From the NCBI GenBank assembly GCA_008690995.1, contig VRMN01000001.1, positions 2,728,001-2,792,000 of the forward strand: a DNA stretch of 64,000 nt, given 5' to 3'. A program made the translations under genes and the position numbers. Numbering within the stretch: position 1 is the stretch's first letter; the number at the start of each line of letters is the position of its first letter. This DNA is from Porphyridium purpureum (lineage: Eukaryota). Positions 2,171 to 40,883 of this stretch are shown here, one piece after another. The notes under the pieces were generated by a model. The model worked only from the letters and a program-made list of their open reading frames with translations. It had not been told where the DNA came from and made no database searches.

Positions 2171-5065
2171 CTAGGAATTTGTAGATGAAGGGGTCTTGTC
2201 GCCTTTGAGTCTGGCGTCATGTGATTTTTCACGTAAGAACGTTCGATCGTGGTTTTGTAAGTTCGCCGCCTTGGACACCATGTTTTTGAATGGCCGCTTC
2301 CCCGTTGTTTCTCGCATCGACGACGACAAGAAGCTGACGGTGTCTGTACCCGTGTTGGATATTTTGTCAAACGGCGAGGTGGGAGGCGTGTCAAGCTCCT
2401 TGGTGGTGTCCATGTCTAGCCGCTCAAGGGCATAGCTGCCGTCTAGCACGCCGCATGGAAGGCCGTTGCGAAGCAGCGTTTCGTGAAATTCTGCACTACG
2501 CTTCCCCGGAGCCCACGTGGTCGCCTTGCGCTTCGTCGCGTCCTGTGCTGGTGCAGCTGAAGTGGCGGGGTTCGTTCCTTCCTCTTTAAACCACGAGCCC
2601 AAGCTATCACTCTCAGCAACTAGAAGGTCAACGCTGGCGTTCAATCCAAGCACGCACGACACAAAAAACTCAGAGACTTTTCCTGTGAACTTGAACGTGA
2701 GAGTCACATATTTGCGAGCCAATAGTTCCAGCTTGTTCTCCATCAAACGGACAGCCTCCGAGTCATGCAAAGTCCAATGCGGCTCAGCGCCCTCCTTCTT
2801 GGCTCGCATCTTGTGCGGGGAACGATGTAGAACTGACGAAGTCAATGAGCAGGTCCATCCACCATTACTTGCACCCGCTTGCTCCAGCAATGATGAAGCA
2901 AGCCCGCTGATTCTCAAATTCTCGAAACGAAGAAATAAAACTTCCGTGTCACGAGATAGACGCAGTAAGGTGTCGCGTCCCTTCAGACCGGTGGTATGAA
3001 TTAGATCTACCTGGACGCGTGCAAACACAGGCGAATGGTCGCTGGTGACAATCTGCTTGTGCGAAATATCCGAGTACTGCAGAATGGTGGAAGAGGAGCC
3101 ACGAAGACTGCGCACCAGCACGCGATCGCACCATGCCGGGGCACGGCCCTTTTCTGAACTGTACACTCTGCGCTGTGTTTCGGCGTCCCACACGCCCGGC
3201 GCATACTTGTACGTCGGCGGAAAGCACAGCTTGCCCTCTTTAAAGCCATAGAATGCTCGATTGAGAGCCCTTTGCTCAAAAAGCTGGTCACGCTTTCCAA
3301 GCACCGTCCACTGCTCGCTCGCAACGCACTCGAGTACCGTCTCTCGTGCTAAATCAATTCGGTAGTTCAGGTCGCCCATCCAAAACAGATGATGGCAGTG
3401 GCTAGTCATAATGTCTGGGCCACCGGGGTCTGCAATTTTCTTCAATCCGCGCACGATTTCCTCGTAGTCTTGGTTTCGCCGGAGTGTTTCGTTCTGATGC
3501 GCGGCCAAATGACTATTGATAAAGCAGAAAACTGTGTCAAACAAGGTGAAGCGCAACCCAATGGCGCCCTTGTTCCCGCCCACACCCGCCACTCCAACAT
3601 TCGTCGTATCACTCTTCACATTTCCGATGCGAGAAATGAGGCTCTCGCGCACATATACAGACAAGACGCGGTTCCAGTGATCCACGTGCGCCAGGCAGAC
3701 ATACTTTGTTTTCCGCATTGCCATCGCAGACGCGAGCATGGACTGCCAGTACTGAACCAGATACTTTCGTGATGACGGATCGAACGTGCACTCTTGCACG
3801 GCAACGACCACAATATCATCATCTCCGTTCATGTTTCCCTCTGCTCGATCTCTAGCCGCAGGAGCTTGGATCCAAGCACTTGGCTGCTCTGGTTTGGCAC
3901 CGCCCATGTTCCATGTATATAGCGCAACATTCACATCAACAGGCCGATGTGAATGTGGAATGGGAATAGCACGATGGTGTTGGTGAGGAAGATGCACATT
4001 AGAATGCAGGTGCGACAAACCTCTTGGGCCTAGTCCTGCCCCTGGCGAAATGCTAGGACCGGTAACACTGGAGCTTTCTCTTCCTTTCGACATCTTTCCC
4101 GGAAAGTCGCGGCGGGCTTCGCCCGAGAACTTGCGCGGTGAGGCAGGCAGCGAATGCGTGCCTCCGTCTTCATGAAAAGGGTCCGGACTCCGCAAGGGCA
4201 CAAAATTTAGCTTTCGCATTCGCGGACTTGCCGCAAATATCTGAGCGTCATTGTTCATACTTGCCACTCTGAGCTCGCGTTCTATGTCATCCAACTCGCC
4301 GTCCTCAGCCGGAATCTCCACCACAACTGTGCAGTCACCGATGCCAAAGTCTTCTATTTCTAAATCCGACTCATCCTCGTCGTTCAATGCGAGCGGTGAT
4401 GGCAAGAAGACCGCAGCAGACTGACCCGGCAAACCATTCTGTGATTCATGCTGCATGGGGCCCTCCTTGATGGACAGCACAAGCTCCATGAACATCTCAG
4501 CCTGTGCGCGGCTCTCAAATTTGAACAGTTTGCTTGGCGCTTCTTCTGTCATCAAATGCATGCTCACAGACGATGAGCCGACGCGCTCCAGGCCGCGCAC
4601 GGTTTGTATTCGATACGCGCGCTTGTGCTCATCACCCGCGGGCGTCATTTCATGAATGACACCTGCCACAAAATCAACGACCAGTTGCCGCCGTCTTCTC
4701 TGGTACAACGTGCGCCCTCGTTTCTCAATGCCAAACACATACGTCTGTGTGTCCGAAAAGTCAGCGTTTCGCGTCTTGTCAGCACCGCCGGGCGATGCAG
4801 CCGGCGCTTCTGCAGACGCAGGCGCAACCATTCCTTGCGCCGTGGTTGTGCCCACAGGCGAGTCCCCCATTCTGCTGAAGTTTGGCAGCACTGTCTTCAA
4901 ATCCAACGCCGGCCTTGCCCTATGCTTAACGCTATCCTTTCTTGGGCTGGCCGCGGCTGGAATGGCCGCAGACACCGACGCCGCTGGCGCGTCCGCAGCC
5001 TCCACCACCAATGCCTCGGCGTCCGCCGGATCCTGATGTTGTTGCTGCTCGCTCATCTGATCCAC
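2171..5065 (-). CDS. Inositol polyphosphate 5-phosphatase
   Basis: TWNMGG, GNKGAIG, NSHLAAH, FWMGDLNYRI, PAWCDRVL and SDHSPV motifs of the IPPc domain. Confidence 0.93.
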   Translation of the reverse strand: MDQMSEQQQHQDPADAEALVVEAADAPAASVSAAIPAAASPRKDSVKHRARPALDLKTVLPNFSRMGDSPVGTTTAQGMVAPASAEAPAASPGGADKTRNADFSDTQTYVFGIEKRGRTLYQRRRRQLVVDFVAGVIHEMTPAGDEHKRAYRIQTVRGLERVGSSSVSMHLMTEEAPSKLFKFESRAQAEMFMELVLSIKEGPMQHESQNGLPGQSAAVFLPSPLALNDEDESDLEIEDFGIGDCTVVVEIPAEDGELDDIERELRVASMNNDAQIFAASPRMRKLNFVPLRSPDPFHEDGGTHSLPASPRKFSGEARRDFPGKMSKGRESSSVTGPSISPGAGLGPRGLSHLHSNVHLPHQHHRAIPIPHSHRPVDVNVALYTWNMGGAKPEQPSAWIQAPAARDRAEGNMNGDDDIVVVAVQECTFDPSSRKYLVQYWQSMLASAMAMRKTKYVCLAHVDHWNRVLSVYVRESLISRIGNVKSDTTNVGVAGVGGNKGAIGLRFTLFDTVFCFINSHLAAHQNETLRRNQDYEEIVRGLKKIADPGGPDIMTSHCHHLFWMGDLNYRIDLARETVLECVASEQWTVLGKRDQLFEQRALNRAFYGFKEGKLCFPPTYKYAPGVWDAETQRRVYSSEKGRAPAWCDRVLVRSLRGSSSTILQYSDISHKQIVTSDHSPVFARVQVDLIHTTGLKGRDTLLRLSRDTEVLFLRFENLRISGLASSLLEQAGASNGGWTCSLTSSVLHRSPHKMRAKKEGAEPHWTLHDSEAVRLMENKLELLARKYVTLTFKFTGKVSEFFVSCVLGLNASVDLLVAESDSLGSWFKEEGTNPATSAAPAQDATKRKATTWAPGKRSAEFHETLLRNGLPCGVLDGSYALERLDMDTTKELDTPPTSPFDKISNTGTDTVSFLSSSMRETTGKRPFKNMVSKAANLQNHDRTFLREKSHDARLKGDKTPSSTNS

Positions 5066-21894: not shown

Positions 21895-24800
21895 TCACAC
21901 TCGCTCGACAAGGTGCCAGCGGGTGTACGGATCATTGTCACACGACATTTTCTCATCATCATGGCTGTACGCATAGCCACGCATGCCAGCACCATCGTCG
22001 CAGTCGTCGGGCTGCATGAGCATCGCGAAGGCGTTGCCACGGTTTGCGGCGGAGCGAGCATGCGTCAGACGCTGGGCGATGCCAAGGGATAAGCTTGCAC
22101 CGTACAGGCCCCACGCGGCTGCATGGCCGCGAAACACGTCGGTGGCAATCGGCTTCGTCAAGCCGTCAGCGATGTTGTCGCGCGTAGCGACATAGACGAA
22201 CCTGACGAGTCCGTCCGCTGCTATCTCGTGCAACCATCTCAGAGAGATGCGCTGCATCTTTGGCGCATGCAGTAGCCGGTCACTGTGGCCGCGCTCCACC
22301 GCGCGCAAAGTCGACTCGTTGTCGCACCGCACAACGATCGGAGGCCAGCGCCTCAAAAGTTCTTCCGCCAGTGTCGCCACTGGGAACACGCTGCCTTGCG
22401 CTGCGTCGTGCAGCGCTACCAACTCAGCCTCGGTCGTCGAGGTGCTGACGCGCCGCTGGCGCCGACTGGTCCAATCTACAAGGTGTTGGCATCTGCCATT
22501 CGATATGAAGAGCACGGCGCCGCTCGTGGATGACGGTGCCGAAAAGTCGGCATCAGCCCACGCGTGCAACCGAACGTCGCGACTGCCTGTCGCGGGTATG
22601 TCGTATTGCAGACAGACGTCCGCATGCTTCTTCAGATACCCGACGATCTCGTCGAGCGCGCGATCCGCGCTTGGCCCCCACCGGTCGACATAACGCGCCA
22701 CATGCGCCGTGGCATAAGCGATGTCTGCTCGCGTGGTTCGGCTGAGCCACAGCAGTTGGCCAATGACTGTTCGCTTGTTCGTCGGGCACGCGCGCCCGCC
22801 GGGTCCATTGTCGTCGACCCGCTCGCTGAGTGGCGTGCTGCGCACGCGCAAGTTGTCCGCGGTGTGGCCGTTCGCCACATGGGTGGCGTACACCCCCGAA
22901 TCCAATATCCATCGGCCGCCGTCGCGATAGATATGCATGCCGAGATACTTGATAGGGCGCGTACGCGCCGAGTCTGCAATGTATTCGACCTTCTGGTCGA
23001 TTCTGAAAACGGTCTTCAGTTGTTTGACCGCCACTCGTACCGCATCCGCATTGCCGAAGAGTGCGCCATCGTCGACGTACATGCTCAGCGTGAGCATGCT
23101 GCCGTTCGCGTCGCGGCGCCAGTACTGGTTCTTGTCCGCGTTGGATTCTTGCCATCCAAGCCGCCGGACACGCTCGCGAGCGTCGTGGCTGAAGTCGCTG
23201 CCGCTCCTTTTCATTCCGTACAGAGCCTGCGGTAGCTCGACGACAGGCTCGCTACACGCGGCCATCTTCCTGTAGTCAGCTTCGCTGACTAGACCCTTCA
23301 CGACCGGGACCAGGTCGCGCAGATATCCGAATGTCGGACGGCCGCCCAATGGTGCACTGGGGTAGGCACACGTTACGTCGAAGAAGGCGCCGTCGGCGGA
23401 TGGTCCATGGAGCATGAGCACCATGCTCATCGAGGCGCGGATCGCCAGCAAACCTGGTGGGCGATCAAAAGGGTACGGTTCTTCGCGCGCGCGACGCCCA
23501 TCGGCGTCCAGCACGACGCATCCTTGCGCGACGATGCGGCACTTCGTCTTGTGGAAAGACGGAGGCATTTCTGAATTCTTCTTGTTGAAGAGGAGCTTCA
23601 ACTTAACAAATTGCGCGTTCGGAACGCGCGCCGCCACTGCCTTGTCCATCGTGCGGCGGAAAGGCAGAGCGCCAGTGCTGGTGAGCGCACGAAGCTCGGA
23701 TGCTAATGCATGGCGGCCGGCGGGCGTGGCCATCGCCACCGCTGTGGCCACAACTTCTGCCACCCCCAGACCTGCCGCTTCGTCCTCTGGTCCTCCTGTC
23801 GCCGCGCTTGTGTACGTTGCGTTGCTGCTACTCTCTGCTCGCGTCGCGTCGTTCCGCGTCGCGTCACTCGCTGCTGCTGCGTGCACTGGAAGCACACCCA
23901 GTTCCGCTGCGCGCGCGCGCAAGCCGGCTGGTTTGCGGCCGCGCATGAAGAATGCTGGCCTACCCGCGATGGCAAGCCAGTCCTCACCAAAACGGGCAAT
24001 GCCTTCGGATATGGCAATGTCCTCGGCCGGACTCCACGGCAGCTCAATGCGCCGATACTGTGCACGCGACGCGAGCTTTCCGTGCTCGTCTCGGTTGCAC
24101 TGGCAGTGCATTTGCCTGCATGCGCCGTCACCAGTGTGACGTCGGTTGGGCGCCGGACCCAAAATGCATTTCTCGCATTCGGTGCTCCCACCGACTATTT
24201 TCTTGCACTGTGTGCAGAATGCACGGTCCGGTGCATTGTCGCGTGCTCGCGACCATTGATCACCCGTCGCAATGGCCTCATCCGGAGGCCGCAGTGCCAA
24301 ACGTCGCAATGGCCACCTGTCGGGAAGTGGCTTCCATTCGCCGACCTTCCTGATCGCAGATGGCCGCAAGTCGGCAATGGGCAGGGCGAGCAGGTTTATC
24401 GGCTGCCGCCGGTCATTTGGCCTCGGTGCCGTGAACCCAACGACGATTGCAGGCAAGCCTTTCGGCTCAAATTTGCCGCGGCTCTCATCGTATATGAGAA
24501 TGCCGCTCCCGAATCCAGGGATGGGCTTGTGCCATGTCAGACCGAGCCGTTGCTCGAAGCTGGTCTGCTCCTGCTTTGCGCCGCGCCAGGCGAGGTTTCT
24601 GGCCAGGCAAAAGTAGGCGGCGGCGAACGGATACCACGCGGTCGGCAAACCAGACTGCATCAGCAGTGCTCGCACTGCTCCGTTCAAGTCTGCGTGCTTG
24701 CGTTCATGCGTCACGTGCGTGTTCGCCCGGTACGGTACACCAGTGACTTTCTTCACGCCCTTTTCCGCGATGAATCCGTCGAATTCGCCCATGAACTCGC

Positions 24801-26718
24801 GGCCCTCGTCACACCGCAACACTCGTGGCCAATCACCACGTCCGCGCTGCAGCTCCGTCAACCCGCGAATGCACTCAGCGGCGGACTTGTCCGCCAGCCC
24901 AATTGCTGAGAACCACCCAGTTGCTTCGTCGAGGTGAGTGAGCAGCCACCTGCTGCCCTCCACGGCTGCCAGTCCGGGATCCACAATGTCAATCGACACC
25001 ACGTCGTTGAACTCGCGCGCTCGTCCGCGCTCTTTGCCAACCGAGTCGTCTCGCCTCACAGCACGCGCGCGCCGCAGCTTTGCCGCGCTGCATATTCCGC
25101 ACGTGTCGCGCGACGGCATGTGCAGAACGCAATGGTCCTGCTCTACATGCTCAGCCTCGGCTGTGCCAAGACTGTGACCGCCGATGGTCATTTCGAAGCG
25201 GTTGGCTCGAAGCCAATCGAGACCGATCACGAGGTCATTGTGGCCATTGTACACGACCACGTCCTGCTGCTTCTCTGCTGAATCCAGCACCGCCAGATTC
25301 ACTGTCGCGCGCCCGCGAGACATGCACTGCGTGCCGTCTGCCAATCGAATGGTCAAGGCATTCGCGGTGCTATTTGTGCGCACTCGCACCATCGCGCATG
25401 CGCTCTCGCTCAGAAAGGTGTGCGTTGCGCCGGTATCGATGACTGCTTTCATCGCCCGGCCGTTCACCCAAGCATTCACCTTGAGCAACCCTTTGCCCGC
25501 ACTGGCGGTCATCAACTCGGCCCCGCCGAGATTGGCATCGCGATCATCGCGCCTATCTGCACAGTTGTGCGTCGCTGGCCCCCACACGGAGCACCGATGG
25601 CAGTAATAGCGCCCACGCTGATTACTCTTCTTGCCATCTTGTTGCGACTTCGGCGTCTGTCGCGGTCGTGGTCTACTGGCACCGCCTCGTTGCGGTGCGC
25701 CACGCTTCTGTCCGCGCCCACGCGCGTCGTTCTGGCCGCCACCACGGTTCCAACCGTGCGTGCTCGGCTCTCGCCAGCCGCCGTCTCGTCCGTCCGCGCG
25801 GCTCTGCGCGTACTGCTCTGCATGATTCGCACGCAGGTTCCGGTGCGGTCCAGCTGGTGACCATTGGTCATGCTGTTGCTGTTGATACTCGTTCGAGCGA
25901 TCCCGCTGGAAGTCGTTGTATCCTCGTTCGTGCACCCGTGCGCGGCTGCCGCTGGCGGTGCCCAAGTCCATTGGCACCGGACCATGCTGGTTATAGTTCA
26001 TCTGGGGGTGGTATGCAGGCTGCATGGCTGACGGGTACGTGCGTGCTGTGATGGGCTGCTGGTCTCGACCACGCTTAAATATGACTTTGTCGGCAACTAG
26101 AGCCAAACGCAAAGCGTCGTCATAGGTGGGAGGGAAGTGAAGCGCTACGTGAGTGGCAATAGAAGTGTCAAGAGATTCTGTAAAATAGTGAAGTTTATCT
26201 TTGTCTACCAAATTTGGTATACGCAGACAAACTTCACTAAATGCAGCTTCAAAATCTTGGACACTCATTGCACCCTGCTTCATCTTTTGCAGTTCATCCC
26301 GCACGTCATTTTCTGTTTCTTTTGGCTCGAAGCGCCGCTGAAGCGCGAGCAGAAACTCTTCTACCGAGGTGGGTCTCTGATCAGGTTGTAATGCCTGGTA
26401 CCAGAGTTGCGCCAATCCGAAGAGGTGAGTCGAAAGCGTCGACACTGCTTCCTCTTCCTCGGTTTCCGTCCAAAGACGGCCCTGCGACCGCCAATCCGAG
26501 CGCGCCGGGTTGTACACCCGCGAACGCGCTGCTGCCGTCCAGGTCATAATGGCCGCAGTGGATCGCTCGCCGCCATAGTACAGCATGGCCGCAGGGCGCA
26601 TGCAGCTCGGCAAAGCGCCACTTCCACCGGATCCATCGCGAAGCGCCCTCAGACGAACGTTCTCGCTCCGCAGCTCGGCGAGCTCACTCTGAACAATCGC
26701 CGTCCGGGTATTCAGTTC
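21895..26718 (-). CDS. Element A Gag-PR-INT-(Cys-rich/Myb)-RT-RNase H polyprotein, N-terminus removed
   Basis: PVPMDLG, VIDTGATHTF, HxxxHxPxxxxCxxC, D..D..E integrase, ALYGMK, MYVDD, WADADF, NIADGLTKP. Confidence 0.92.
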   Translation of the reverse strand, partial: ELNTRTAIVQSELAELRSENVRLRALRDGSGGSGALPSCMRPAAMLYYGGERSTAAIMTWTAAARSRVYNPARSDWRSQGRLWTETEEEEAVSTLSTHLFGLAQLWYQALQPDQRPTSVEEFLLALQRRFEPKETENDVRDELQKMKQGAMSVQDFEAAFSEVCLRIPNLVDKDKLHYFTESLDTSIATHVALHFPPTYDDALRLALVADKVIFKRGRDQQPITARTYPSAMQPAYHPQMNYNQHGPVPMDLGTASGSRARVHERGYNDFQRDRSNEYQQQQHDQWSPAGPHRNLRANHAEQYAQSRADGRDGGWREPSTHGWNRGGGQNDARGRGQKRGAPQRGGASRPRPRQTPKSQQDGKKSNQRGRYYCHRCSVWGPATHNCADRRDDRDANLGGAELMTASAGKGLLKVNAWVNGRAMKAVIDTGATHTFLSESACAMVRVRTNSTANALTIRLADGTQCMSRGRATVNLAVLDSAEKQQDVVVYNGHNDLVIGLDWLRANRFEMTIGGHSLGTAEAEHVEQDHCVLHMPSRDTCGICSAAKLRRARAVRRDDSVGKERGRAREFNDVVSIDIVDPGLAAVEGSRWLLTHLDEATGWFSAIGLADKSAAECIRGLTELQRGRGDWPRVLRCDEGREFMGEFDGFIAEKGVKKVTGVPYRANTHVTHERKHADLNGAVRALLMQSGLPTAWYPFAAAYFCLARNLAWRGAKQEQTSFEQRLGLTWHKPIPGFGSGILIYDESRGKFEPKGLPAIVVGFTAPRPNDRRQPINLLALPIADLRPSAIRKVGEWKPLPDRWPLRRLALRPPDEAIATGDQWSRARDNAPDRAFCTQCKKIVGGSTECEKCILGPAPNRRHTGDGACRQMHCQCNRDEHGKLASRAQYRRIELPWSPAEDIAISEGIARFGEDWLAIAGRPAFFMRGRKPAGLRARAAELGVLPVHAAAASDATRNDATRAESSSNATYTSAATGGPEDEAAGLGVAEVVATAVAMATPAGRHALASELRALTSTGALPFRRTMDKAVAARVPNAQFVKLKLLFNKKNSEMPPSFHKTKCRIVAQGCVVLDADGRRAREEPYPFDRPPGLLAIRASMSMVLMLHGPSADGAFFDVTCAYPSAPLGGRPTFGYLRDLVPVVKGLVSEADYRKMAACSEPVVELPQALYGMKRSGSDFSHDARERVRRLGWQESNADKNQYWRRDANGSMLTLSMYVDDGALFGNADAVRVAVKQLKTVFRIDQKVEYIADSARTRPIKYLGMHIYRDGGRWILDSGVYATHVANGHTADNLRVRSTPLSERVDDNGPGGRACPTNKRTVIGQLLWLSRTTRADIAYATAHVARYVDRWGPSADRALDEIVGYLKKHADVCLQYDIPATGSRDVRLHAWADADFSAPSSTSGAVLFISNGRCQHLVDWTSRRQRRVSTSTTEAELVALHDAAQGSVFPVATLAEELLRRWPPIVVRCDNESTLRAVERGHSDRLLHAPKMQRISLRWLHEIAADGLVRFVYVATRDNIADGLTKPIATDVFRGHAAAWGLYGASLSLGIAQRLTHARSAANRGNAFAMLMQPDDCDDGAGMRGYAYSHDDEKMSCDNDPYTRWHLVERV

Positions 26719-27017
26719 TGTTATCCGTTCGACCCCAGTCACCTAGAACGGTTCGGTTAATCCGAAACCGGTAAGCCGTTAAACCGGTAGACCGTTTAAC
26801 CGTTTCTAGAAGCTTCTAGAGGTTCCAGAACCTTCTAGACGCGCGCAGAAATGCCAATGATTTGCATTGTCATTTCTCTTGGCGCCTTGCTGTCCCTGGC
26901 GGAAGTAAGGGTATAAAAAGGCGACGCGCCTGCCCGGACTAGCCGGTCAGGTCTTGCTCGGAGACAGAAGAGGTAAGAAGAAGACGCAGAGAGTAAAAAG
27001 GCACAGCATTGGTAACA
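26719..27017 (+). repeat. 5' LTR of element B (299 bp)
   Basis: TGTTA...TAACA termini; direct repeat of 31888-32185; TATAAAA at 26912. Confidence 0.96.
26804..26840. promoter_or_regulatory. Tandem heat-shock-element-like arrays in the LTR
   Basis: TTCtaGAAgcTTCtaGAg and TTCcaGAAccTTCtaGAc, ~70 bp upstream of the TATA box. Confidence 0.7.
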
Positions 27018-27019
27018 TT

Positions 27020-27027
27020 TGGTATCA
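27020..27027 (+). other. Primer-binding site (tRNA-iMet-like)
   Basis: TGGTATCA 2 bp after the 5' LTR. Confidence 0.85.
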
Positions 27028-27584
27028 TCGCTGGTTACCTGGGGTTGCTCTAAGGTTCTCTTTGAGTTTCTCTGGGGTTGCCTGGGTGGGAGAGTCTGCG
27101 GGTAAGGGGGTTCGAGTAAGTCGATCCGGAGGGTGCGACGGGTGGAAGCGGGTCTCAGTCTTGGCTGTACGATAGGCCTAGGCCTTGACGGCGGACTCGC
27201 TCTCTGCCTTAGCACGTATTAGTAGGCAAGAGCCGTAACGGTCAGCCTTCACTAGGATTCATCCTAGTGTCGCACGACCACCTTTGCGAAGGTAGGCGCC
27301 GAACACCTCCATACAAGATCGCATCTATAATCCCCGCCCCAGTGCAAAGGCCCGGGCCGCTCCCCATCCAGCGCAACAGAGGAGGATTGCTGTGTGCTTT
27401 GTTGTGTGTGCGTGAGAGGGTTGCTGTGCGTGTGTGTGAGTGAGAGGACCGCTTCGTGTGTCGATTTGTGTTCGTGAGGGCGACCGAGCCCGTTCGTGGT
27501 GCGCGCAGCCGTTCGAGAGTGTGAGCAGCGGAGACTCGCTGTTTGTGTCGTTGTCGTCGTTTAGTGTGCTTGTTTCCAGAAAGC

Positions 27585-28391
27585 ATGGAGATTGATTCGG
27601 AGACGCTGGGACCACGTGGCCCGAAGGAGGCCCGTCTGATGAGGTTCGACGGGAAGCGTGACCTTCTCGTTGTGAAGACGTGGTTGTTCCAGGCGAGAAA
27701 GAAGATCTTGGGCCGGCTGTTGGAGAGCATCCACCCGGACGATTTGGAGAAACGTCTGCTTGCGGAGAGGCGTGCTGTGGACCTGGCATCAGACTACTTC
27801 GAGGGAGAGGCGCTTCATTGGTGGGTTCTAAACTGCGAACGCTACCCGCATGAGATCCCCACGACGTGGAATGATTTTGCTGCCCTCGTGAGTGCTCGGT
27901 TCACGCCGCAGGATTCGATCAGGCGTGCAAGGGACAAGTTGACGCGTCTTTCGCAGAAAGGCCCGGCCCATGCGTATGTGGCGGCTTTTCAGGACGCGGC
28001 ACTTGTGATTCCGGACTTGTCGGACGCAGAAATGATGGACCGCTTTGTGAGGGGTCTGAAGCCCGAGGTCCGCTTGGAAGTGTACAAGCGAGGAGTGAGT
28101 ACGTTCGCGGAGGCTGCGCAGGTGGCGGTGGTCGTGGACGACGCCATTCATGCGACCCGCGGCGTGCGTGATTCAAGTGTGAGGGCGCCATTTTTCGGTC
28201 GTGCAGCGCAGGAAGGACCTGTCCCGATGGAGCTGGGACATGTGCAGGGTCAGAGGCGTGTTCGTACCGAGCTCAAGTGCTGGAATTGTGGAAGGCCGGG
28301 ACACATCGCCAGGACGTGTCCCGAGGCAAGGAAGACTATCCAGCAGCTGGAGGGAGACTCGCTGGAGTCAAAAAACGAGGAGCTCGAGTAG
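27585..28391 (+). CDS. gag: Element B Gag
   Basis: Retrotransposon capsid-like region, PVPMELG and CWNCGRPGHIARTC zinc knuckle. Confidence 0.93.
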   Translation: MEIDSETLGPRGPKEARLMRFDGKRDLLVVKTWLFQARKKILGRLLESIHPDDLEKRLLAERRAVDLASDYFEGEALHWWVLNCERYPHEIPTTWNDFAALVSARFTPQDSIRRARDKLTRLSQKGPAHAYVAAFQDAALVIPDLSDAEMMDRFVRGLKPEVRLEVYKRGVSTFAEAAQVAVVVDDAIHATRGVRDSSVRAPFFGRAAQEGPVPMELGHVQGQRRVRTELKCWNCGRPGHIARTCPEARKTIQQLEGDSLESKNEELE

Positions 28392-31300
28392 AAAGGTTCC
28401 TCGGACAGTCAGAGGGAAAGGAGGCTCGCAGGCGTTACGAGACCTCTAGGGGCGGCAATGAAGACCGCTGTGGTGGCCTTGGTAAGCCAAGGTCTGGCTG
28501 TCCGACACCTTGTGGGCGAAACTCGAGCGCAAATCAGCCCGTGATCAAGGAACTTGGAGGGATGGGAGCTGCCATGCTTCTTCGAGTTCGAGGAAAAGTG
28601 CACAAGTCCGACGGAGAGGCCACGTTTTTGATTGACAGTGGCGCGACGGACAACTTCATGAGCGTGGACTTTGTGCTGAAATCCGACGGCCTGAAGCAGA
28701 AGGCGTCGTGGAAGAGAGATCATGTGACCCTAGCGGATGGGTCTGTATTGGAAACAGCCGGAGAAGTTTCCAATGTCAAGTTTGAACTGAGCGATGGGTA
28801 CTCAGGGGCCGCTAACTTTGCCATTTGCCGGATTGCGGGACAAGACGCAATCTTGGGCATGGAGTGGCTGAAGCGGGAGAACCCAGTGATTGATTGGCAG
28901 TCTGGCATGTTGGCCTACGGAGAGAAGAAGGCCTGGAGCATGACGCAGATGCTGGTGCCGCGGAAAGAGCTCCGTCGGCTGTTGAAGAGTCAGGAGGTAG
29001 AAGAGTGCTACCTCGGCGTGCTGAAAGGAAGGGAGGAGCCCTGTTCAGTGGAGCGCAAAGGAGATGACTCTGTGAAGAAGATGCTCAAAGATTTCGAAAG
29101 TCTGTTCGAGGAGCCGCGAGGGCTGCCTGAGAGCCGAACAGTGGAGCATGTGATTAGGCTGAAAGATGAGAAGCCTGTGAGAGTGGGCAGGGTCTACCGA
29201 CTGAGCCCTGCGGAGTTGAAAGTCCTCCGAGAGACTTTGGATGACTTGCTGGATAAGGGATTCGTCCAGCCGAGTCAGAGCCCGTTTGGAGCACCCGTGC
29301 TGTTCGTGAAGAAGAAAGACGGCAGCATGAGGATGTGCGTTGATTATCGGGCGTTGAACGACGCAACTGTGAAGGACCGGTATCCGTTGCCGAACATGGA
29401 TGAGTTGCTGGATCGACTGGGCGCAGCTCACTGTTTCTCAAAGTTGGATTTGGCATCGGGATACCACCAGTTGCGTGTTCGGAGAGAGGACGTGCCGAAG
29501 ACCGCGTTCCAGACCAGGTACGGACAGTTCGAGTTCCGTGTGATGCCGTTTGGTCTTTGCAACGCGCCGGCAACTTTTCAGAGGGCCATGAACGAGCTGT
29601 TTGCAGATCTGCTGGACAAGACCGTCATTGTCTACTTGGACGATATTTTGGTCTTTACCAAGGATAGGCAGTCGCACGGCGAGGTCCTGAAGGAAGTGTT
29701 GTCGCGCTTGCAAAAGGCAGGGTATCGTTTGAAGCGCAAGAAGTGCAGCTTTTTCGTTTCTGAAGTCGAATACCTGGGGAACATTGTCGGCAACGGTTGC
29801 GTGAAGATGGATCCACGGAAGGTGGAAGCTTTGAGAGATTGGCCAGTGCCAAAGACGGTGACGGAGTTGAGATCCTTTTTGGGAATGACAAACTGGTTTC
29901 GCAGGTTTGTCAAAGGATACTCTACCGTCGTGGCGCCGCTGACTTCGCTGTTGCAGAACGCAAAGTCGAAGAAGCAGCTGATCGAACTGGGAGATGAAGG
30001 CAAATCGGCCTTCAAGAAGATTGTCGGGATGTTGACGGAAGCGCCGGTGTTGGCCTTGCCAGACCCTGAAAAGCCATTTGAGGTGTACACGGACCGCTCC
30101 GAAGTCGCGGTGGGGGGATGGCTGGCACAGGAAGGCAGACCGGTCGCGTTTACGTCGAGGAAGCTGCTGGACCGAGAGACCAGGTACAGCAGCTATGAAG
30201 GTGAGCTCATGGCCGTCATTCACTGTCTGCGAGAGTTTCGACCTTATCTGTACGGGGCAAAGTTTGTGCTTCACACAGATCATGAGGCGTTGAAACATCT
30301 GATGACGCAGAAGGAGCTGAATGGCCGGCAAGCACGGTGGTTGGACTTTTTGGCCGAGTTTGATATCACAATCGACTATGTGAAGGGAAAGTCGAACGTG
30401 GTGGCCGATGCTTTGTCGAGAAAGCCAGAGTTGCATGCGCTAGAGTACCAAGTTCGGTGTGATGAATTTGGTGCGGGGTTCCAGGCATTCGTGGGTTCGT
30501 ACTCGAGTGACCCAGACTTTGGTGCTTTGATGGGGGATTTACCGACCCACCAAGGCTTTCGAACCGAAGCTGGGCTCTTGTACTTGAGGAATCGCGTTTG
30601 CGTGCCGAGGAAGTTCAGAGAGCGTGTCATGCAGCTCCACCACGATATCCCGACAGCAGGACACCGTGGAGCCGACACGACGTATGCATCTTTGATCACT
30701 CGCTTCTACTGGCCAAAGATGAAGCGAGACGTGAGCCGTTTTGTGAAGACTTGTCACGCGTGCCAAGTGACAAAGTCTGAGAATCGGTCGTTTGGAAAGC
30801 TGAAGCCCTTGTCGATCCCAGAAGGACCTTGGGTCGACATTTCGATGGACTTTGTGACGGAGCTGCCTCGGAGCGAAGGCAGCTGTGATGCAATCATGAC
30901 TGTGGTGGATCGCTATTCGAAGATGGCGCTGTTTATCCCGACGCGCAAGGACTTGACAGCAAAACGTTGTGCTGACTTGTTCGTGAAGCACGTCGTGAGC
31001 CGTTTCGGATACCCCAAGTCAATTGTATCGGACCGAGATCCGCTGTTTACGTCCACGTTTTGGCAGCAGTTGAGCAAGCGGGTGGGCATGAAGTTGGCTA
31101 TGTCTGCCGCCAACCACCCGCAGACTGATGGCCAAACTGAGCGAGTGAACCGGGTGATTCGGGAAATGCTCAAGTTAATGGCGACGAATAGTGGCTGGGT
31201 GCGAGACTTGCCGTTGTACGAGTTTGCGTACAACTCTGCACCAAGCAGTGCCACTGGATTCGCGCCGTTCAAAGTGGTATATGGAAGGGATCCTTGGTTT

Positions 31301-31768
31301 CCACCGAGCGAAGGGTGGAGGCCTGCGCGCGACGGACAGACAAAGGACATGGCGGAGCACTGGTTTCGCCTGTGCAAAGTCCATGAAGAAGTCCGCGACA
31401 ATTTGATCGAAGCCCAGGGGAGAATGCAGAAGTTCTTCGATCGACGCAAGGATGCCCGGGAGTTTCAAGTTGGTGATCAAGTGTTGATCACGGCGCCGCA
31501 ATTGCGGCCGAACAAGAGTGATTTGGCGGCACCAAAGTTTCTTGGTCCGGTGCCTGTCATTGAGAAGGTAAGCTCGCATGCTTACCGAGTGATTTTGCCC
31601 GAGGGTGTGGCTTGTCATGATGTTTTTCCGATCCAACATCTGAAGCCATACTATGGACGCGAAGACTACATGGCAGGGGAAAATGATGAAGAAGTACCCG
31701 ACGACCTGCCAGCGTCCGATTCTGAGCCAGACTTGTTGAAAATTATCGAAGAGTCTGACTCTGAATGA
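28370..31768 (+). CDS. pol: Element B Pol (PR-RT-RNase H-INT) in the -1 frame relative to gag
   Basis: LIDSGAT, YLDD, RNase H DALSR, HHCC and DDE integrase, GPY/F-like motif; no chromodomain seen. Confidence 0.95.
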   Translation, partial: KKRGARVERFLGQSEGKEARRRYETSRGGNEDRCGGLGKPRSGCPTPCGRNSSANQPVIKELGGMGAAMLLRVRGKVHKSDGEATFLIDSGATDNFMSVDFVLKSDGLKQKASWKRDHVTLADGSVLETAGEVSNVKFELSDGYSGAANFAICRIAGQDAILGMEWLKRENPVIDWQSGMLAYGEKKAWSMTQMLVPRKELRRLLKSQEVEECYLGVLKGREEPCSVERKGDDSVKKMLKDFESLFEEPRGLPESRTVEHVIRLKDEKPVRVGRVYRLSPAELKVLRETLDDLLDKGFVQPSQSPFGAPVLFVKKKDGSMRMCVDYRALNDATVKDRYPLPNMDELLDRLGAAHCFSKLDLASGYHQLRVRREDVPKTAFQTRYGQFEFRVMPFGLCNAPATFQRAMNELFADLLDKTVIVYLDDILVFTKDRQSHGEVLKEVLSRLQKAGYRLKRKKCSFFVSEVEYLGNIVGNGCVKMDPRKVEALRDWPVPKTVTELRSFLGMTNWFRRFVKGYSTVVAPLTSLLQNAKSKKQLIELGDEGKSAFKKIVGMLTEAPVLALPDPEKPFEVYTDRSEVAVGGWLAQEGRPVAFTSRKLLDRETRYSSYEGELMAVIHCLREFRPYLYGAKFVLHTDHEALKHLMTQKELNGRQARWLDFLAEFDITIDYVKGKSNVVADALSRKPELHALEYQVRCDEFGAGFQAFVGSYSSDPDFGALMGDLPTHQGFRTEAGLLYLRNRVCVPRKFRERVMQLHHDIPTAGHRGADTTYASLITRFYWPKMKRDVSRFVKTCHACQVTKSENRSFGKLKPLSIPEGPWVDISMDFVTELPRSEGSCDAIMTVVDRYSKMALFIPTRKDLTAKRCADLFVKHVVSRFGYPKSIVSDRDPLFTSTFWQQLSKRVGMKLAMSAANHPQTDGQTERVNRVIREMLKLMATNSGWVRDLPLYEFAYNSAPSSATGFAPFKVVYGRDPWFPPSEGWRPARDGQTKDMAEHWFRLCKVHEEVRDNLIEAQGRMQKFFDRRKDAREFQVGDQVLITAPQLRPNKSDLAAPKFLGPVPVIEKVSSHAYRVILPEGVACHDVFPIQHLKPYYGREDYMAGENDEEVPDDLPASDSEPDLLKIIEESDSE

Positions 31769-31873
31769 CTTGGGAATTGTGAGAAGTTTGCTAGGCAGAG
31801 GTTTTCTCCCGGAGCGCGGGTTCCTCGAGCCAAGAATGCAACTTAGTTTGAAGTCTCGCCGAGACGTCGAGCC

Positions 31874-31887
31874 AAGAGGGGGGGAGA
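31874..31887 (+). other. Polypurine tract of element B
   Basis: AAGAGGGGGGGAGA immediately before the 3' LTR. Confidence 0.92.
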
Positions 31888-32185
31888 TGTTATCCGTTCG
31901 ACCCCAGTCACCTAGAACGGTTCGGTTAATCCGAAACCGGTAAGCCGTTAAACCGGTAGACCGTTTAACCGTTTCTAGAAGCTTCTAGAGGTTCCAGAAC
32001 CTTCTAGACGCGCGCAGAAATGCCAATGATTTGCATTGTCATTTCTCTTGGCGCCTTGCTGTCCCTGGCGGAAGTAAGGGTATAAAAAGGCGACGCGCCT
32101 GCCCGGACTAGCCGGTCAGGTCTTGCTCGGAGACAGAAGAGGTAAGAAAGAAGACGCAGAGAATAAAGGCACAGCATTGGTAACA
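31888..32185 (+). repeat. 3' LTR of element B (298 bp)
   Basis: Direct repeat of 26719-27017, with differences seen only near the poly(A)-signal region. Confidence 0.96.
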
Positions 32186-35100
32186 TTGGAACTCGTGCGG
32201 AAACTAGGATATCCTTCTATTCGCGCGGTGAGGCAAGGAATGATTAGCGGTGCGATCAAGAACTGCGATGTGACAGTACGCGACATCGATAGAAGCATCG
32301 CGCTCTGGGGACCTGCACTTCCTGCCTTGAAAGGACGTACGACGGGTCACAAAACACCTGCCGTGCCCGAAGCTCCTCTGACGATGCCGTTCAGGGACGC
32401 ACAAATGTGTTGCGATATTATGGCCGTGGACCGAAACCTGTTCTTGATTTCAGTAGTCAAACCATTTCAGTTTTTCATGGCCACGCCAATTAGGAACAAA
32501 TCAGCGGAGGACATTCACGCAGCCCTGACGAAGCAGCTGAAGACGTTGCGTGGGCACCAAGTGATCGTGAGAATGATACACTCGGATCGAGAGAGTGGCG
32601 TAAAGGCCGTGGTTGACTGGATGCATGAGAACGGGATATTGCCAGAGTTGACCGGGGCAGGGGAAGCGGTTCAAGCAGCCGAGCGCGGCATTCGACTGGT
32701 GAAAGAACGTGCGCGCGCGGTGATTAGCGGGTTGCCGTTTGTGTTGCCTCGCCTGCTCGTGCCTGCCCTTGTCGAATATTGCGTTCAGCGCATAAATGGC
32801 CTGCAGAGTAGTGTGTCCAGTGGGGCTCTTTCGGGTAGGTCCCCGAAAGAGGAGATGACGGGTCGTGTATTGGACGCGAAAAGGGACCTTGCCCTCGGGT
32901 TCGGGGACTACGTGCAAGTGCACGCCGCGCATGTGGACAATAGCATGGCAGAGCGCACAGTGGGGTGCATCGCACTACATCCCACTGAAAACTTGTCCGG
33001 GGCGTGGAACTTCTTGAATCTGAATACAGTAGCAATGACTGTGCGGCAAAGCTGGACTAGTTTGCCGACGCCTGATTTTGTACTTGATAGGCTCAACGAG
33101 CTCGCGGCGACAAGAGGGCAAGTGGAAGTCGGCATCGAGGGAAATGCGAGCGTCAGCCTGGACGAGCAACAGCAAGGGCTCCCCGCGGAGGGCGCAGGCG
33201 AAGAGGGAGAGTTGGAAGAACAGTCGGAAAACGAACTCCCAGACATGCTGGAGGGCGATTGGGAAGAGTCAATGGAAGATGGTGGGATACGGGATCCAGA
33301 GCATGCGATGAAGTCGAGCAAAGCATCTGTGACACCGGATGGTGAGGTGGCAGTTGGAGTGGCTGAGCAGAGGGACGTTCCGAGCGTCACGGACCTTCCA
33401 GCCGTGATGGAGCGGCCTGATGCAGAACACGAGACGCGAGAAGGTGGAACTCTAGAACCTAAGAATGCTTTGCAACAGAGTCCGTCCATGGATACGTTCG
33501 TGAGTGCGGACCGTCGCGAACAAAGAAATATGACGGTAGTCTCAAATGCTCAGAATGCTTTGGAGGATCAAATTGGCTGCACGCGTGAGCTCAATGAGCC
33601 TCGAGGCGAACGACCGGGGGAATTGCGCAGTGTTGCGGGTCGGACGTCCGATAAGGAAGGCATCGATGAGCCGAGAGCGCAGATAGCTGGGAAACGAACA
33701 CAAGATAACACAGGTGACGATTGGGAGCGCAACCTGCGCGCGCGCATTATGCCAGCCCCTATGCTGCACGAAACGGTTGGTGCTGGGCACGCAGAACAGC
33801 GGAGCGCGCAGGCCCCAAAAGCAAGTTTAAGCGCTCCGCAAGGCGCGGCGTTGTTTAAGTCTGAGGGGCCAACGAGCGCAGCGAGTCGGAAAGCGTCGCG
33901 CCACGGCCCCAGGCGGAGCCTGCGGCCGGGGGTACAGTTGGAGGTACAGTGCCCTACTACTGATCCCGGGACTGCCGACGCTGTGCTAAGGGGCGCTGTA
34001 ATCGATGCTCGGCTTGCTGAACTCGAGACTCGAGAGCGTCAGCTGCTGAGGGCCATAAGACTGGCCTCTATTGAGAAGCGATTGAAGGAAATCGATGCCA
34101 GGGAAGAAGAGCTGAGGCTGGAGAAACGGCTGAAGCGAAAATCTCGGGAGGCGGGGAACGATGAACACGCCGAGGACGATGCAGAAGCGACGTCGACAAA
34201 ACGCGCCAGGGCATTCGTGGTGAAGGCGGTCCGCGCGGGCATGGCGCTGAACTTATCTGTGAAGAAGGCGATCAAGAAATTCGGGTCCAAAGCAATGGAA
34301 GCAATAGTGCGCGAGGTGGCCCAGTTGGATCAGCGCTACGGGTACGGCGTTGTGGAGCCTGTCGATACCAAGACCATGACGCCACAAGAGAGAAAGTCCA
34401 TTATACCGTCACATATGTTTGTGAAGGAGAAACTGGACTCGACTGGGGCTGTGGAAAAGGTGAAGGCGCGTATTGTGGCAGGTGGCAACAAACAGGACGC
34501 CGTCCTGTACCCCGACAGATCGGCGCCCACCGCGGCCACAGATAGCGTTCTGATCTTGGCTGCCATTGCGGCGAGAGAAGGCAGATCCGTTGGGAAAATG
34601 GATTTCCCCGGCGCGTTCCTTCACGCGCCGATGCCCGCCGACGTGCCGGACACTCATATGAGAATTGATAGCTTCCTGGCTGACGTGCTAGTCCGACTGG
34701 ATCAAAAGTACGAACAGTACTTGCGAAAGGATGGGTCACTCGTTGTCAAGCTGACGAAAGCGTTGTATGGCACTTTGATCGCGGCACGACAATGGTACAT
34801 GAAAGTTGCGGGGCTGTTCGAGGATCTGGGATTCGTGGTAAATCCTTATGATGCATGTGTGTTTAATCGAGAGTCCGTGTCGATGATTCTCCACGTGGAC
34901 GATGTCATGCTATTCGGCAAGTCGGAGGCTGCGGTGAAAGGTGTCATGAAAGAAGTTAGAGACAAGTACCCCGGACTGACGTGCGAAACCGGAGTCAAGA
35001 TCGATTATCTCGGAATGCTGTTTGACTTTCGAAAAAAGGGATTCGTGACCATCAGTATGCAGGGGTATGTTGATGCGCTCATTGAGGAGAGCGGCACGAG

Positions 35101-35906: not shown

Positions 35907-36203
35907 TGTTGTGGGTTTTAGGGTTTGCCGACATGTTGTAGCACCGCAGAACATTCTAGATGCTGGTGCTGATGCACGCGTCCTGCGGCGGTAGGCGCTC
36001 CTGTGCCCGAGCAGGGAATTTGGTAGTGACGAGATTGCGGCTTTGCGGGTATAAAAGCGTGCTCTGGCGAGCGACCCGGCGGCGGCGTAATGGAGAAGAA
36101 GGGCTACGGATTTAGGGAGTGAAAAGCGTAACTTTGCACTGACGAGTATAAATTGTTTGTTTTTTCTTAGACGAACATCTCAGTAGTGACAGAAACCATA
36201 ACA
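35907..36203 (+). repeat. 3' LTR of element C (~297 bp)
   Basis: Inverted termini TGTTGTGG...CCATAACA; TATAAAA near 36050; follows the PPT. Confidence 0.8.
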
Positions 36204-39370: not shown

Positions 39371-40735
39371 TTATATGCATGCAAAGAGATCACGAGGATC
39401 CAACTCAACAAGCCGAGGGTCCGACAAAGAAACGCCAGGATGACTGTCCTGGCCGAACGCACTTTCTTGAATAAACCAATGGCTCGGATCCACCAGGCTC
39501 TTGTCCACAACCACACCATATACGTGCTCGCGAAACCATGCCTCGGACATTGTAACATATCCACTGTCACCACAATCTGGACCCCAGCTGTTTTCCACAC
39601 GAAAGAAGCCATCTCCGTATCCAGAAAATACCATGTTGTGGCTTGACACAGCAAGACCAAGCTCGATCCGTTCCTTCCGACTGAGACGTTTTGAAAGGCC
39701 CACGCAAGAGAGAATGTCCAAATCCTGCAGACCGGTGGAACGATCAAAGTCTCCTGCTGAGTCCACATCACAACCGAACCACACGGGCTCACGGAGTTCT
39801 TGAATAGACCTCTTCACCGCTGTTTGCATCGTGTCCATATCGACATTAATCCAAGCGAGCATCGTCCGTGGAGAACAAGAATCGAACTTCTTCAGACATG
39901 CAGAGTTTTTGCCGTGCTTGACGGTCATGACGCTACCTTTCGGCAAGGCCGGATTACATGCCAGTCCAACTTTTTGTTCTAGATTGTAGAAGGGTTCCAC
40001 ATGCGTGCGAAAATACTCGAGCGGCGTCATGTCAATATCCCCAATTCTGACTGTACGCAGCGGCATGCCCAGAAAAGACGCGAGCAAGGCTCTAATCTGC
40101 TCCAATTTCTCGTCCAAGGCGTCATGTACAGCGCGCGAATCCCTGCCATTCTCATTCACGATGCGCTGCAGCTCGACACCCATTTCTACAGTCACACGAT
40201 TGAGCACAGCACACAACTGCCTTGAGTTTGAATGATGGTACGTGTCTGGCGCCACTCTCTTTGGTACCACACCGTACTTAAGCACAAGCGCGCGGAAGAC
40301 ATGCCAGTCGCTTCCATCTCTTGCTGGTCCAACGCGGAACAGATATTTCATCAAGTCATCGTTTTCGGCCTGCCCGGCTAGTTCGATTACATCCATCAAG
40401 AACGCTTGCATCTTCTCGAACTTTTCGTAAAACACCAAAAAGCTTTGGCTGAGCTCAAAGCCACTTTCTTGGTCACTATCTGTGTCCCACTTCATCTGAC
40501 GACGCAACACAGTCAGGCCTGCAAACATCCAACAGCGGCCAGATTGGAGCTGTGCGCCGACCGGAATCTCCTCGAGCATGGTTGCACTGGGAGCAGGGCA
40601 AGCCGCCGCGGCATCCCGCAGGGGTTGTGCTTTGCTTGCATCCAGAGGGACAGCTCCGTCTATCCATGCTGAAGCCGCCATTGGAAGTGCAACTCGTTCA
40701 GGAACCTTCGAAAGCCTGTCGGCTAACTTGGGCAT
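39371..40735 (-). CDS. Bleomycin hydrolase / aminopeptidase C (peptidase C1B)
   Basis: QLQSGRCWMFA, PVWFGCDV, SHNM and VENSWG catalytic motifs. Confidence 0.92.
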   Translation of the reverse strand: MPKLADRLSKVPERVALPMAASAWIDGAVPLDASKAQPLRDAAAACPAPSATMLEEIPVGAQLQSGRCWMFAGLTVLRRQMKWDTDSDQESGFELSQSFLVFYEKFEKMQAFLMDVIELAGQAENDDLMKYLFRVGPARDGSDWHVFRALVLKYGVVPKRVAPDTYHHSNSRQLCAVLNRVTVEMGVELQRIVNENGRDSRAVHDALDEKLEQIRALLASFLGMPLRTVRIGDIDMTPLEYFRTHVEPFYNLEQKVGLACNPALPKGSVMTVKHGKNSACLKKFDSCSPRTMLAWINVDMDTMQTAVKRSIQELREPVWFGCDVDSAGDFDRSTGLQDLDILSCVGLSKRLSRKERIELGLAVSSHNMVFSGYGDGFFRVENSWGPDCGDSGYVTMSEAWFREHVYGVVVDKSLVDPSHWFIQESAFGQDSHPGVSLSDPRLVELDPRDLFACI

Positions 40736-40883
40736 TTGATTCGAGCTGGCCCATGCGTCGCGAGGATCGTCTCGTACAGGTTTCTTTTTTCTTTTTTATT
40801 TGGGCTTATCCAACGGGAGTGCTTAGAAGCACAGCCTTCAAAATGAGAAGGTTTCGAGTCCCACATGGACACGTGCGGCGCGG

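Follow-up and report, generated by a model that had tools for sequence, protein, structure and literature searches.

Candidate heat-shock elements in the LTR promoter of a Ty3/gypsy retrotransposon from the red alga Porphyridium purpureum

Is a retrotransposon of the red alga P. purpureum wired to its host's HSF? The question is raised by an LTR in the window, the stretch of 64,000 nucleotides analysed here (contig VRMN01000001.1, positions 2,728,001–2,792,000, assembly GCA_008690995.1). An earlier note on this DNA described two adjacent arrays of heat-shock elements (HSEs) in the LTR of a gypsy element, about 70 bp upstream of TATAAAA and repeated in the 3′ LTR, and proposed that this algal element had recruited HSF control by convergence. 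The element and its promoter comprise the following features.

26719–27017 (+): 5′ LTR, 299 nt, TG...CA ends
26725–26804 (no strand): five AACGG/CCGTT cores, directly upstream of the HSEs
26804–26821 (+): HSE 1, TTC-TA-GAA-GC-TTC-TA-GAG; three perfect inverted nGAAn units and an imperfect fourth
26823–26840 (+): HSE 2, TTC-CA-GAA-CC-TTC-TA-GAC; three perfect units and an imperfect fourth
26850–26874 (no strand): imperfect inverted repeat, 10 bp with a 5-nt spacer, between the HSEs and the TATA box
26912–26918 (+): TATA box TATAAAA, 71 nt after 26840
27020–27027 (+): primer-binding site TGGTATCA, after the 5′ LTR
27585–28391 (+): gag ORF, with Retrotrans_gag, Ty3_capsid and zf-CCHC (Pfam)
28172–31768 (+): uninterrupted pol frame, with protease, RT, RNase H, integrase and SH3 (Pfam)
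28370–28376 (+): heptamer A AAA AAC (gag-frame reading), predicted site of a −1 frameshift into the pol frame
31874–31887 (+): polypurine tract (PPT), before the 3′ LTR
31888–32185 (+): 3′ LTR, 298 nt, TG...CA ends; HSEs at 31973–31990 and 31992–32009, TATA at 32081

Structure of the element, its promoter and its locus

The Ty3/gypsy element spans 26719–32185 and looks intact, with gag and pol frames that run without interruption. Pfam matches fall in the Ty3/gypsy order of gag, protease, RT, RNase H and integrase, which bears out the assignment to gypsy in the earlier note. The algal host had likewise been recognised correctly, as the five best Pol homologues are all from P. purpureum (98% identity for the best, a cluster of 64 sequences, and 94, 93, 90 and 72% for the others). 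Because the next Pol matches lie near 40% identity, the family is taken to be young, multi-copy and red-algal. The chromodomain PF00385 is present in many of these ~40%-identity relatives, and Pfam gave no match to it in the element's own Pol or in the five P. purpureum Pol clusters. The primer-binding site TGGTATCA at 27020 is presumably of the initiator-Met tRNA type. Downstream of the heptamer at 28370–28376, a hairpin region is predicted at −22.2 kcal/mol over 79 nt, a value given without a shuffle control.

The two LTRs are identical over their first 261 nt and match in 296 of 300 alignment columns; their differences, one substitution and three indel bases, lie at the 3′ end. Both arrays are present at the positions described in the earlier note, their copies at 31973–31990 and 31992–32009 in the 3′ LTR are identical, and the spacing of about 70 bp corresponds to the 71 nt from 26840 to the TATA box at 26912. 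Each LTR contains two sites with at least three contiguous inverted nGAAn units, which defines a canonical HSE, and neither LTR array contains a perfect four-unit match. The stretch CTnGAAnnTTCnAG at 26806, within HSE 1, is what we take to be the Pelham consensus. The third perfect units of HSE 1 and HSE 2 end 95 and 76 nt above the TATA box, and the arrays lie 76–108 nt above it; this promoter-proximal placement is measured from the TATA box.

HSE 1 and HSE 2 are offset by 19 nt and are identical at 15 of 19 positions, and are therefore regarded as one tandem duplication rather than as independent sites. Treating them as one continuous eight-unit HSE was also rejected, because they are one base out of the 5-nt register.

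No target-site duplication of 4–6 bp brackets 26719–32185, where the flanks read AGTTC (26714–26718) and TTGGA (32186–32190). Each flank is part of a different broken retroelement, and the two elements point in opposite directions. On the left is the beginning of the gag frame belonging to a minus-strand element, whose uninterrupted form occurs in runs X7, X8, X10, X2 and X19, and the right flank is the middle of an ORF of a different, plus-strand copia element. Given the missing duplication, the mismatched flanks and LTRs that differ at their 3′ end, this copy is probably a recombinant of two gypsy insertions or the product of an assembly join. A search at the left junction (26718/26719) found no bridging contig in the runs examined, and in X8 the depth is flat up to the junction; the left junction may be a strain polymorphism or a mis-assembly, and its absence from contigs proves nothing. 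The missing duplication bears on the history of the copy and not on the family, and it leaves the motif unaffected because the contigs of all six runs cover the arrays.

The minus-strand neighbour (21898–26718, −) is a separate observation. Its one long ORF encodes a Ty3-type gag and protease (Ty3_capsid, Retrotrans_gag, gag-asp_proteas) and continues as a copia-order integrase, RVT_2 RT and RNase H-like tail (Pfam). The gag is 25% identical to that of the adjoining gypsy element over 227 aa (E 7e-16). Three P. purpureum clusters share this gag-protease type (99%, with 16 members, 41% and 39%), and the other three of the six matches are weak RT matches at 22–29% identity. The ORF is a candidate for a chimeric lineage combining gypsy gag with copia pol, which may be a better lead than the HSE finding and possibly a more novel one.

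Chance expectation, family variants and distant relatives

Across the window, TTCnnGAAnnTTC has five matches against a mean of 0.81, and none of 100 shuffles reached five; four of the five are the same two sites duplicated across the two LTRs. The fifth canonical three-unit match (40697–40709) lies inside the host ORF 39371–40795 and is most likely due to chance. When the 299-nt LTR was shuffled 20,000 times with dinucleotides preserved, at least one canonical site arose in 104 shuffles and at least two in 5. As the two arrays derive from one duplication, the fair chance figure is that for at least one site (104/20,000, 0.5%). An HSE in the LTR by chance is unlikely.

The 3′ LTR of the neighbouring copia element (35907–36203, +) contains a near-HSE at 35949, GAA-CA-TTC-TA-GAT, which has 8 of 9 core letters and starts 101 nt above the copia TATA at 36050. 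With 28 sites of this relaxed kind in the window, the match is only suggestive.

Variation within the gypsy family was assessed from contigs of four runs over 26719–26925 of U3, with differences counted from 1%. Among the family variants 27 positions are substituted, and none of the 18 GAA/TTC core positions is among them. Substitutions within the arrays fall on 5 of the 21 non-core positions (3 of 12 in spacers, one in the linker and one in an imperfect fourth unit), and the central TA/CA spacers vary at 26808 and 26827 while GAA/TTC stays constant. The hypergeometric P for core avoidance ranges from 0.007 to 0.07 with the choice of test interval and is 0.035 for the arrays alone; the variants behind these values come from a few related subfamilies. 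In one minor subfamily the third unit of HSE 2 is disrupted by the loss of 3 nt at 26832, and P becomes 0.04–0.27 if this deletion is scored as a core change. When masks of the same shape were slid along the sequence, 24 of 176 avoided all variants, mostly in the less variable 3′ part.

At the threshold applied, contigs covering the arrays show no substituted core position in any of the six runs examined. In run X19, a diverged LTR (record 7) aligns only over 26847–26894, and the 30 letters upstream hold TTC-TA-GAA-AC-TTC, a perfect three-unit HSE with a changed spacer. A second diverged LTR in the same run has only a degenerate array within its 30 visible letters. Purifying selection on the HSE cores is suggested by these patterns, not conclusively. 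Position 26854 also changes among the family variants, and the CCAAT there was therefore rejected as an invariant cofactor site; a common variant at this position makes the arms of the inverted repeat at 26850–26874 perfect.

Beyond Porphyridium, the comparison drew on 94 distant gypsy loci from metagenome and viral contigs, which are only 29–48% identical in their best segment and therefore provide no close outgroup LTR. The exact 33-nt LTR pattern was found in no stretch of the metagenome contigs. The 139.6 kb of non-coding sequence in the 94 loci contains 12 canonical HSE matches against 1.85 expected, matches that are not independent since they fall in 8 loci, most in one clade. The 381.7 kb of coding sequence contains one match against 5.7 expected; the match in locus L003 is coding. 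Among the controls, those with wrong spacing matched 1, 3 and 3 times and those with other inverted triplets 4 and 2 times, but 17 matches in 10 loci came from a direct-repeat GAA control. An HSE is carried by 4 of the 24 loci with a visible LTR pair, many of these LTRs being incomplete.

An RT tree of 28 rows was built from the 24 loci with an LTR pair, three further HSE-positive loci and the window element. The HSE label changes at least five times on this tree, and the window element lies outside the clade (support 100/97) that holds the other seven HSE-positive loci. In a tree without L090, whose RT is short, Porphyridium elements form a supported branch of their own. The convergent recruitment proposed in the earlier note fits the 28-row tree, but is indistinguishable from patchy retention because the LTRs do not align at such depth. 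Repeated gain of HSEs across gypsy elements fits the data, and patchy retention may also account for them.

Several relatives merit mention in their own right. Locus L015 has three canonical HSEs in its non-coding end (4270–4340), 69–126 nt above a TATA-like box. Similarly, L085, L086, L088, L089, L090 and L093, which are distant gypsy elements from metagenome and IMG/VR contigs, have HSEs in their non-coding ends, and in one clade of distant gypsy elements five of the six tree members bear an HSE. The 14 viral-collection records L081–L094 are contigs of gypsy-type retroelements, and in many of them the two ends share a short identical overlap.

Proposed HSF control and competing readings

A three-unit HSE array binds one HSF trimer. 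It is rather likely that, under heat or proteotoxic stress, both arrays are occupied by the host HSF, which increases transcription from the LTR TATA promoter, and the HSE pair is probably functional. Each three-unit array would bind one HSF trimer, the pair would act jointly on the TATA promoter, and full-length element RNA would increase under stress. Reverse transcription copies U3 into both LTRs in each round, so every new copy would inherit the switch. That heat-induced RNA leads on to new insertions is a weaker further step, and a doubtful one.

Passages of PMC8304369 attribute a single HSF to P. purpureum. Eight P. purpureum Hsp20 promoters are presented in PMC8966773, with 17.1a and 17.1b marked as P-type, three marked as S-type and three unmarked. 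The 17.1a and 17.1b promoters are near-identical to each other in supplement 2 of that paper, where inspection by eye locates GAA-TT-TTC-CG-GAA ~60 nt above the GGGTATAAA box and a near-copy of the perfect site ~55 nt further up. The gypsy LTR and the host Hsp20-17.1 promoters thus both have two HSEs above GGGTATAAA. The sHSP promoter of the red alga Cyanidioschyzon is described in PMC4206486 as strongly heat-induced without a typical three-unit HSE, so red-algal heat induction need not use perfect HSEs; putative HSEs are predicted for this promoter in PMC4224343. Within the portions of these papers that were consulted, no experiment was found that tests HSF directly on perfect HSEs in a red alga.

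At least half of the element's words are present in 18 runs, as assembled contigs whose condition is unstated. In each of X10, X7 and X12 one unbranched contig leads out of the internal region, across the PPT and deep into U3, the PPT-joined form in X2 has a depth of 827 against 5.6 and 12 for the two other flanks shown, and X8 has many different flanks. The unbranched PPT-to-U3 form suggests transcripts and the many flanks suggest genomic DNA; the depths are not taken as copy number or expression, and the kinds of run are guessed. Some basal transcription of the gypsy family is possible, if weakly indicated. These contigs, in X10, X7, X2 and X12 under unstated conditions, would suit a basal or general-stress enhancer, at which the single HSF is bound without heat and drives steady transcription with little heat-specific induction. 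Constitutive HSF trimers are mentioned for yeast and Chlamydomonas in part of PMC4224343. However, RNA levels cannot be read from contigs of runs of guessed kind, strong induction could coexist with little basal RNA from dozens of copies, and all three families with at least two HSEs in the flatworm Macrostomum were induced (PMC12801592). Such an enhancer is considered unlikely.

The arrays might instead be a neutral by-product, in which a short palindrome was doubled by 19-nt slippage in a repeat-rich U3 and carried along in a young family. Both arrays being one duplication, the other short repeats of U3 (AACGG/AACCGG runs), the HSE 2 deletion in one subfamily and the degenerate array in another LTR all agree with this origin, which is nevertheless judged quite improbable: array substitutions affect spacers, linker and fourth unit (5/21) and spare the cores (0/18), the diverged X19 LTR retains a perfect site with a different spacer, and wrong-spacing controls yield 1–3 matches in the related loci against 12 for the HSE. 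It is very improbable that another factor, for example of cell-cycle or bZIP type, reads a TCTAGA-centred palindrome, or that control resides in the AACGG cores or the repeat at 26850–26874. The AACGG/CCGTT cores at 26725–26804, which we take to be MSA/MYB-like, number five, a count reached in 23 of 20,000 LTR shuffles for a motif picked post hoc, and the inverted-repeat block is kept in the diverged X19 LTR (record 7). Two of the five cores are broken in one subfamily, however, and spacers that vary at 26808 and 26827 beside constant GAA/TTC fit an nGAAn reading and not a TCTAGA-specific factor.

HSF-driven induction remains the preferred reading, supported by a motif beyond chance expectation, variants that spare the cores, a perfect site in a diverged LTR, a single host HSF, the Hsp20 layout, the Macrostomum precedent and the enrichment in distant loci. 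A bolder and speculative extension would have the most abundant young red-algal gypsy family wired to the sole HSF of its host, with the wiring kept through its subfamilies and the elements mobilised by heat, as the first red-algal HSF-driven retrotransposon. If this is true, bursts of the element would supply repeats for rearrangements, such as the join without target-site duplication at this locus, and the 300-nt LTR would provide a ready-made heat-inducible promoter in P. purpureum. Confirmation would provide a small inducible promoter for a cultured microalga and perhaps a natural mutagen that can be induced. In a host with only one HSF, the link to the LTR is simple to test.

Comparison with known heat-responsive retrotransposons

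The novelty implied by the earlier note was overstated, since HSE-bearing gypsy LTRs have already been published for a flatworm, where they were validated (PMC12801592), and for a fungus (PMC12810828). The host lineage is new and the kind of element is known; no new mechanism is revealed. Titles and abstract openings, in a search for which most subscription journals were outside the scope, included no HSE-bearing or heat-induced retrotransposon from Porphyridium or another red alga.

Algal LTR elements with temperature-responsive expression are cited in PMC5963040 and PMC7017206, namely Surcouf and Blackbeard of Phaeodactylum and a copia element of Symbiodinium; they differ from the present element in being copia-type and in belonging to non-red algae. 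Rice Go-on is likewise an LTR element activated by heat, with LTR motifs predicted to respond to heat, but it is a copia and not a gypsy element, and its motifs come from a database scan (bioRxiv 10.1101/317479, in part). ONSEN (ATCOPIA78) of Arabidopsis and other Brassicaceae also uses LTR HSEs as a route into the host heat-shock response. In contrast to the element described here, it is an unrelated Ty1/copia element for which direct HSF binding was demonstrated, and its land-plant host has many HSFs rather than one (PMC12801592).

Among gypsy elements, Cryptococcus TCN3 similarly has two putative HSEs in its LTR. According to the text drawn on from PMC12810828, TCN3 moved only at 37 °C, and TCN3 and TCN12 both mobilise at higher temperature. 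These are fungal elements, and what was demonstrated for them is transposition at 37 °C, not HSF binding; the P. purpureum element is described here from sequence.

A close likeness is to the Ty3/gypsy families of Macrostomum lignano (Mlig-id115|Mag, id36 and id55|CsRN1, and id38|Gmr1), whose LTR promoters contain canonical three-unit HSEs; the same expression, applied here, finds two matches. As reported in the relevant parts of PMC12801592, four of six HSE-bearing families were strongly heat-induced, including all three with at least two HSEs, and the two non-induced families had one HSE each. Furthermore, mutation of the HSEs abolished the heat response of a Ty3 LTR. Unlike the element in the window, those of Macrostomum belong to other clades in an animal host, and both their induction (>250-fold) and its dependence on the HSEs were measured. 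Together with the 8 of 94 distant loci that carry HSEs, the P. purpureum LTR supports HSE gain as a common, repeated strategy of LTR elements. If the reading is confirmed, red algae would join land plants, flatworms and fungi as hosts in which LTR retrotransposons have captured HSF.
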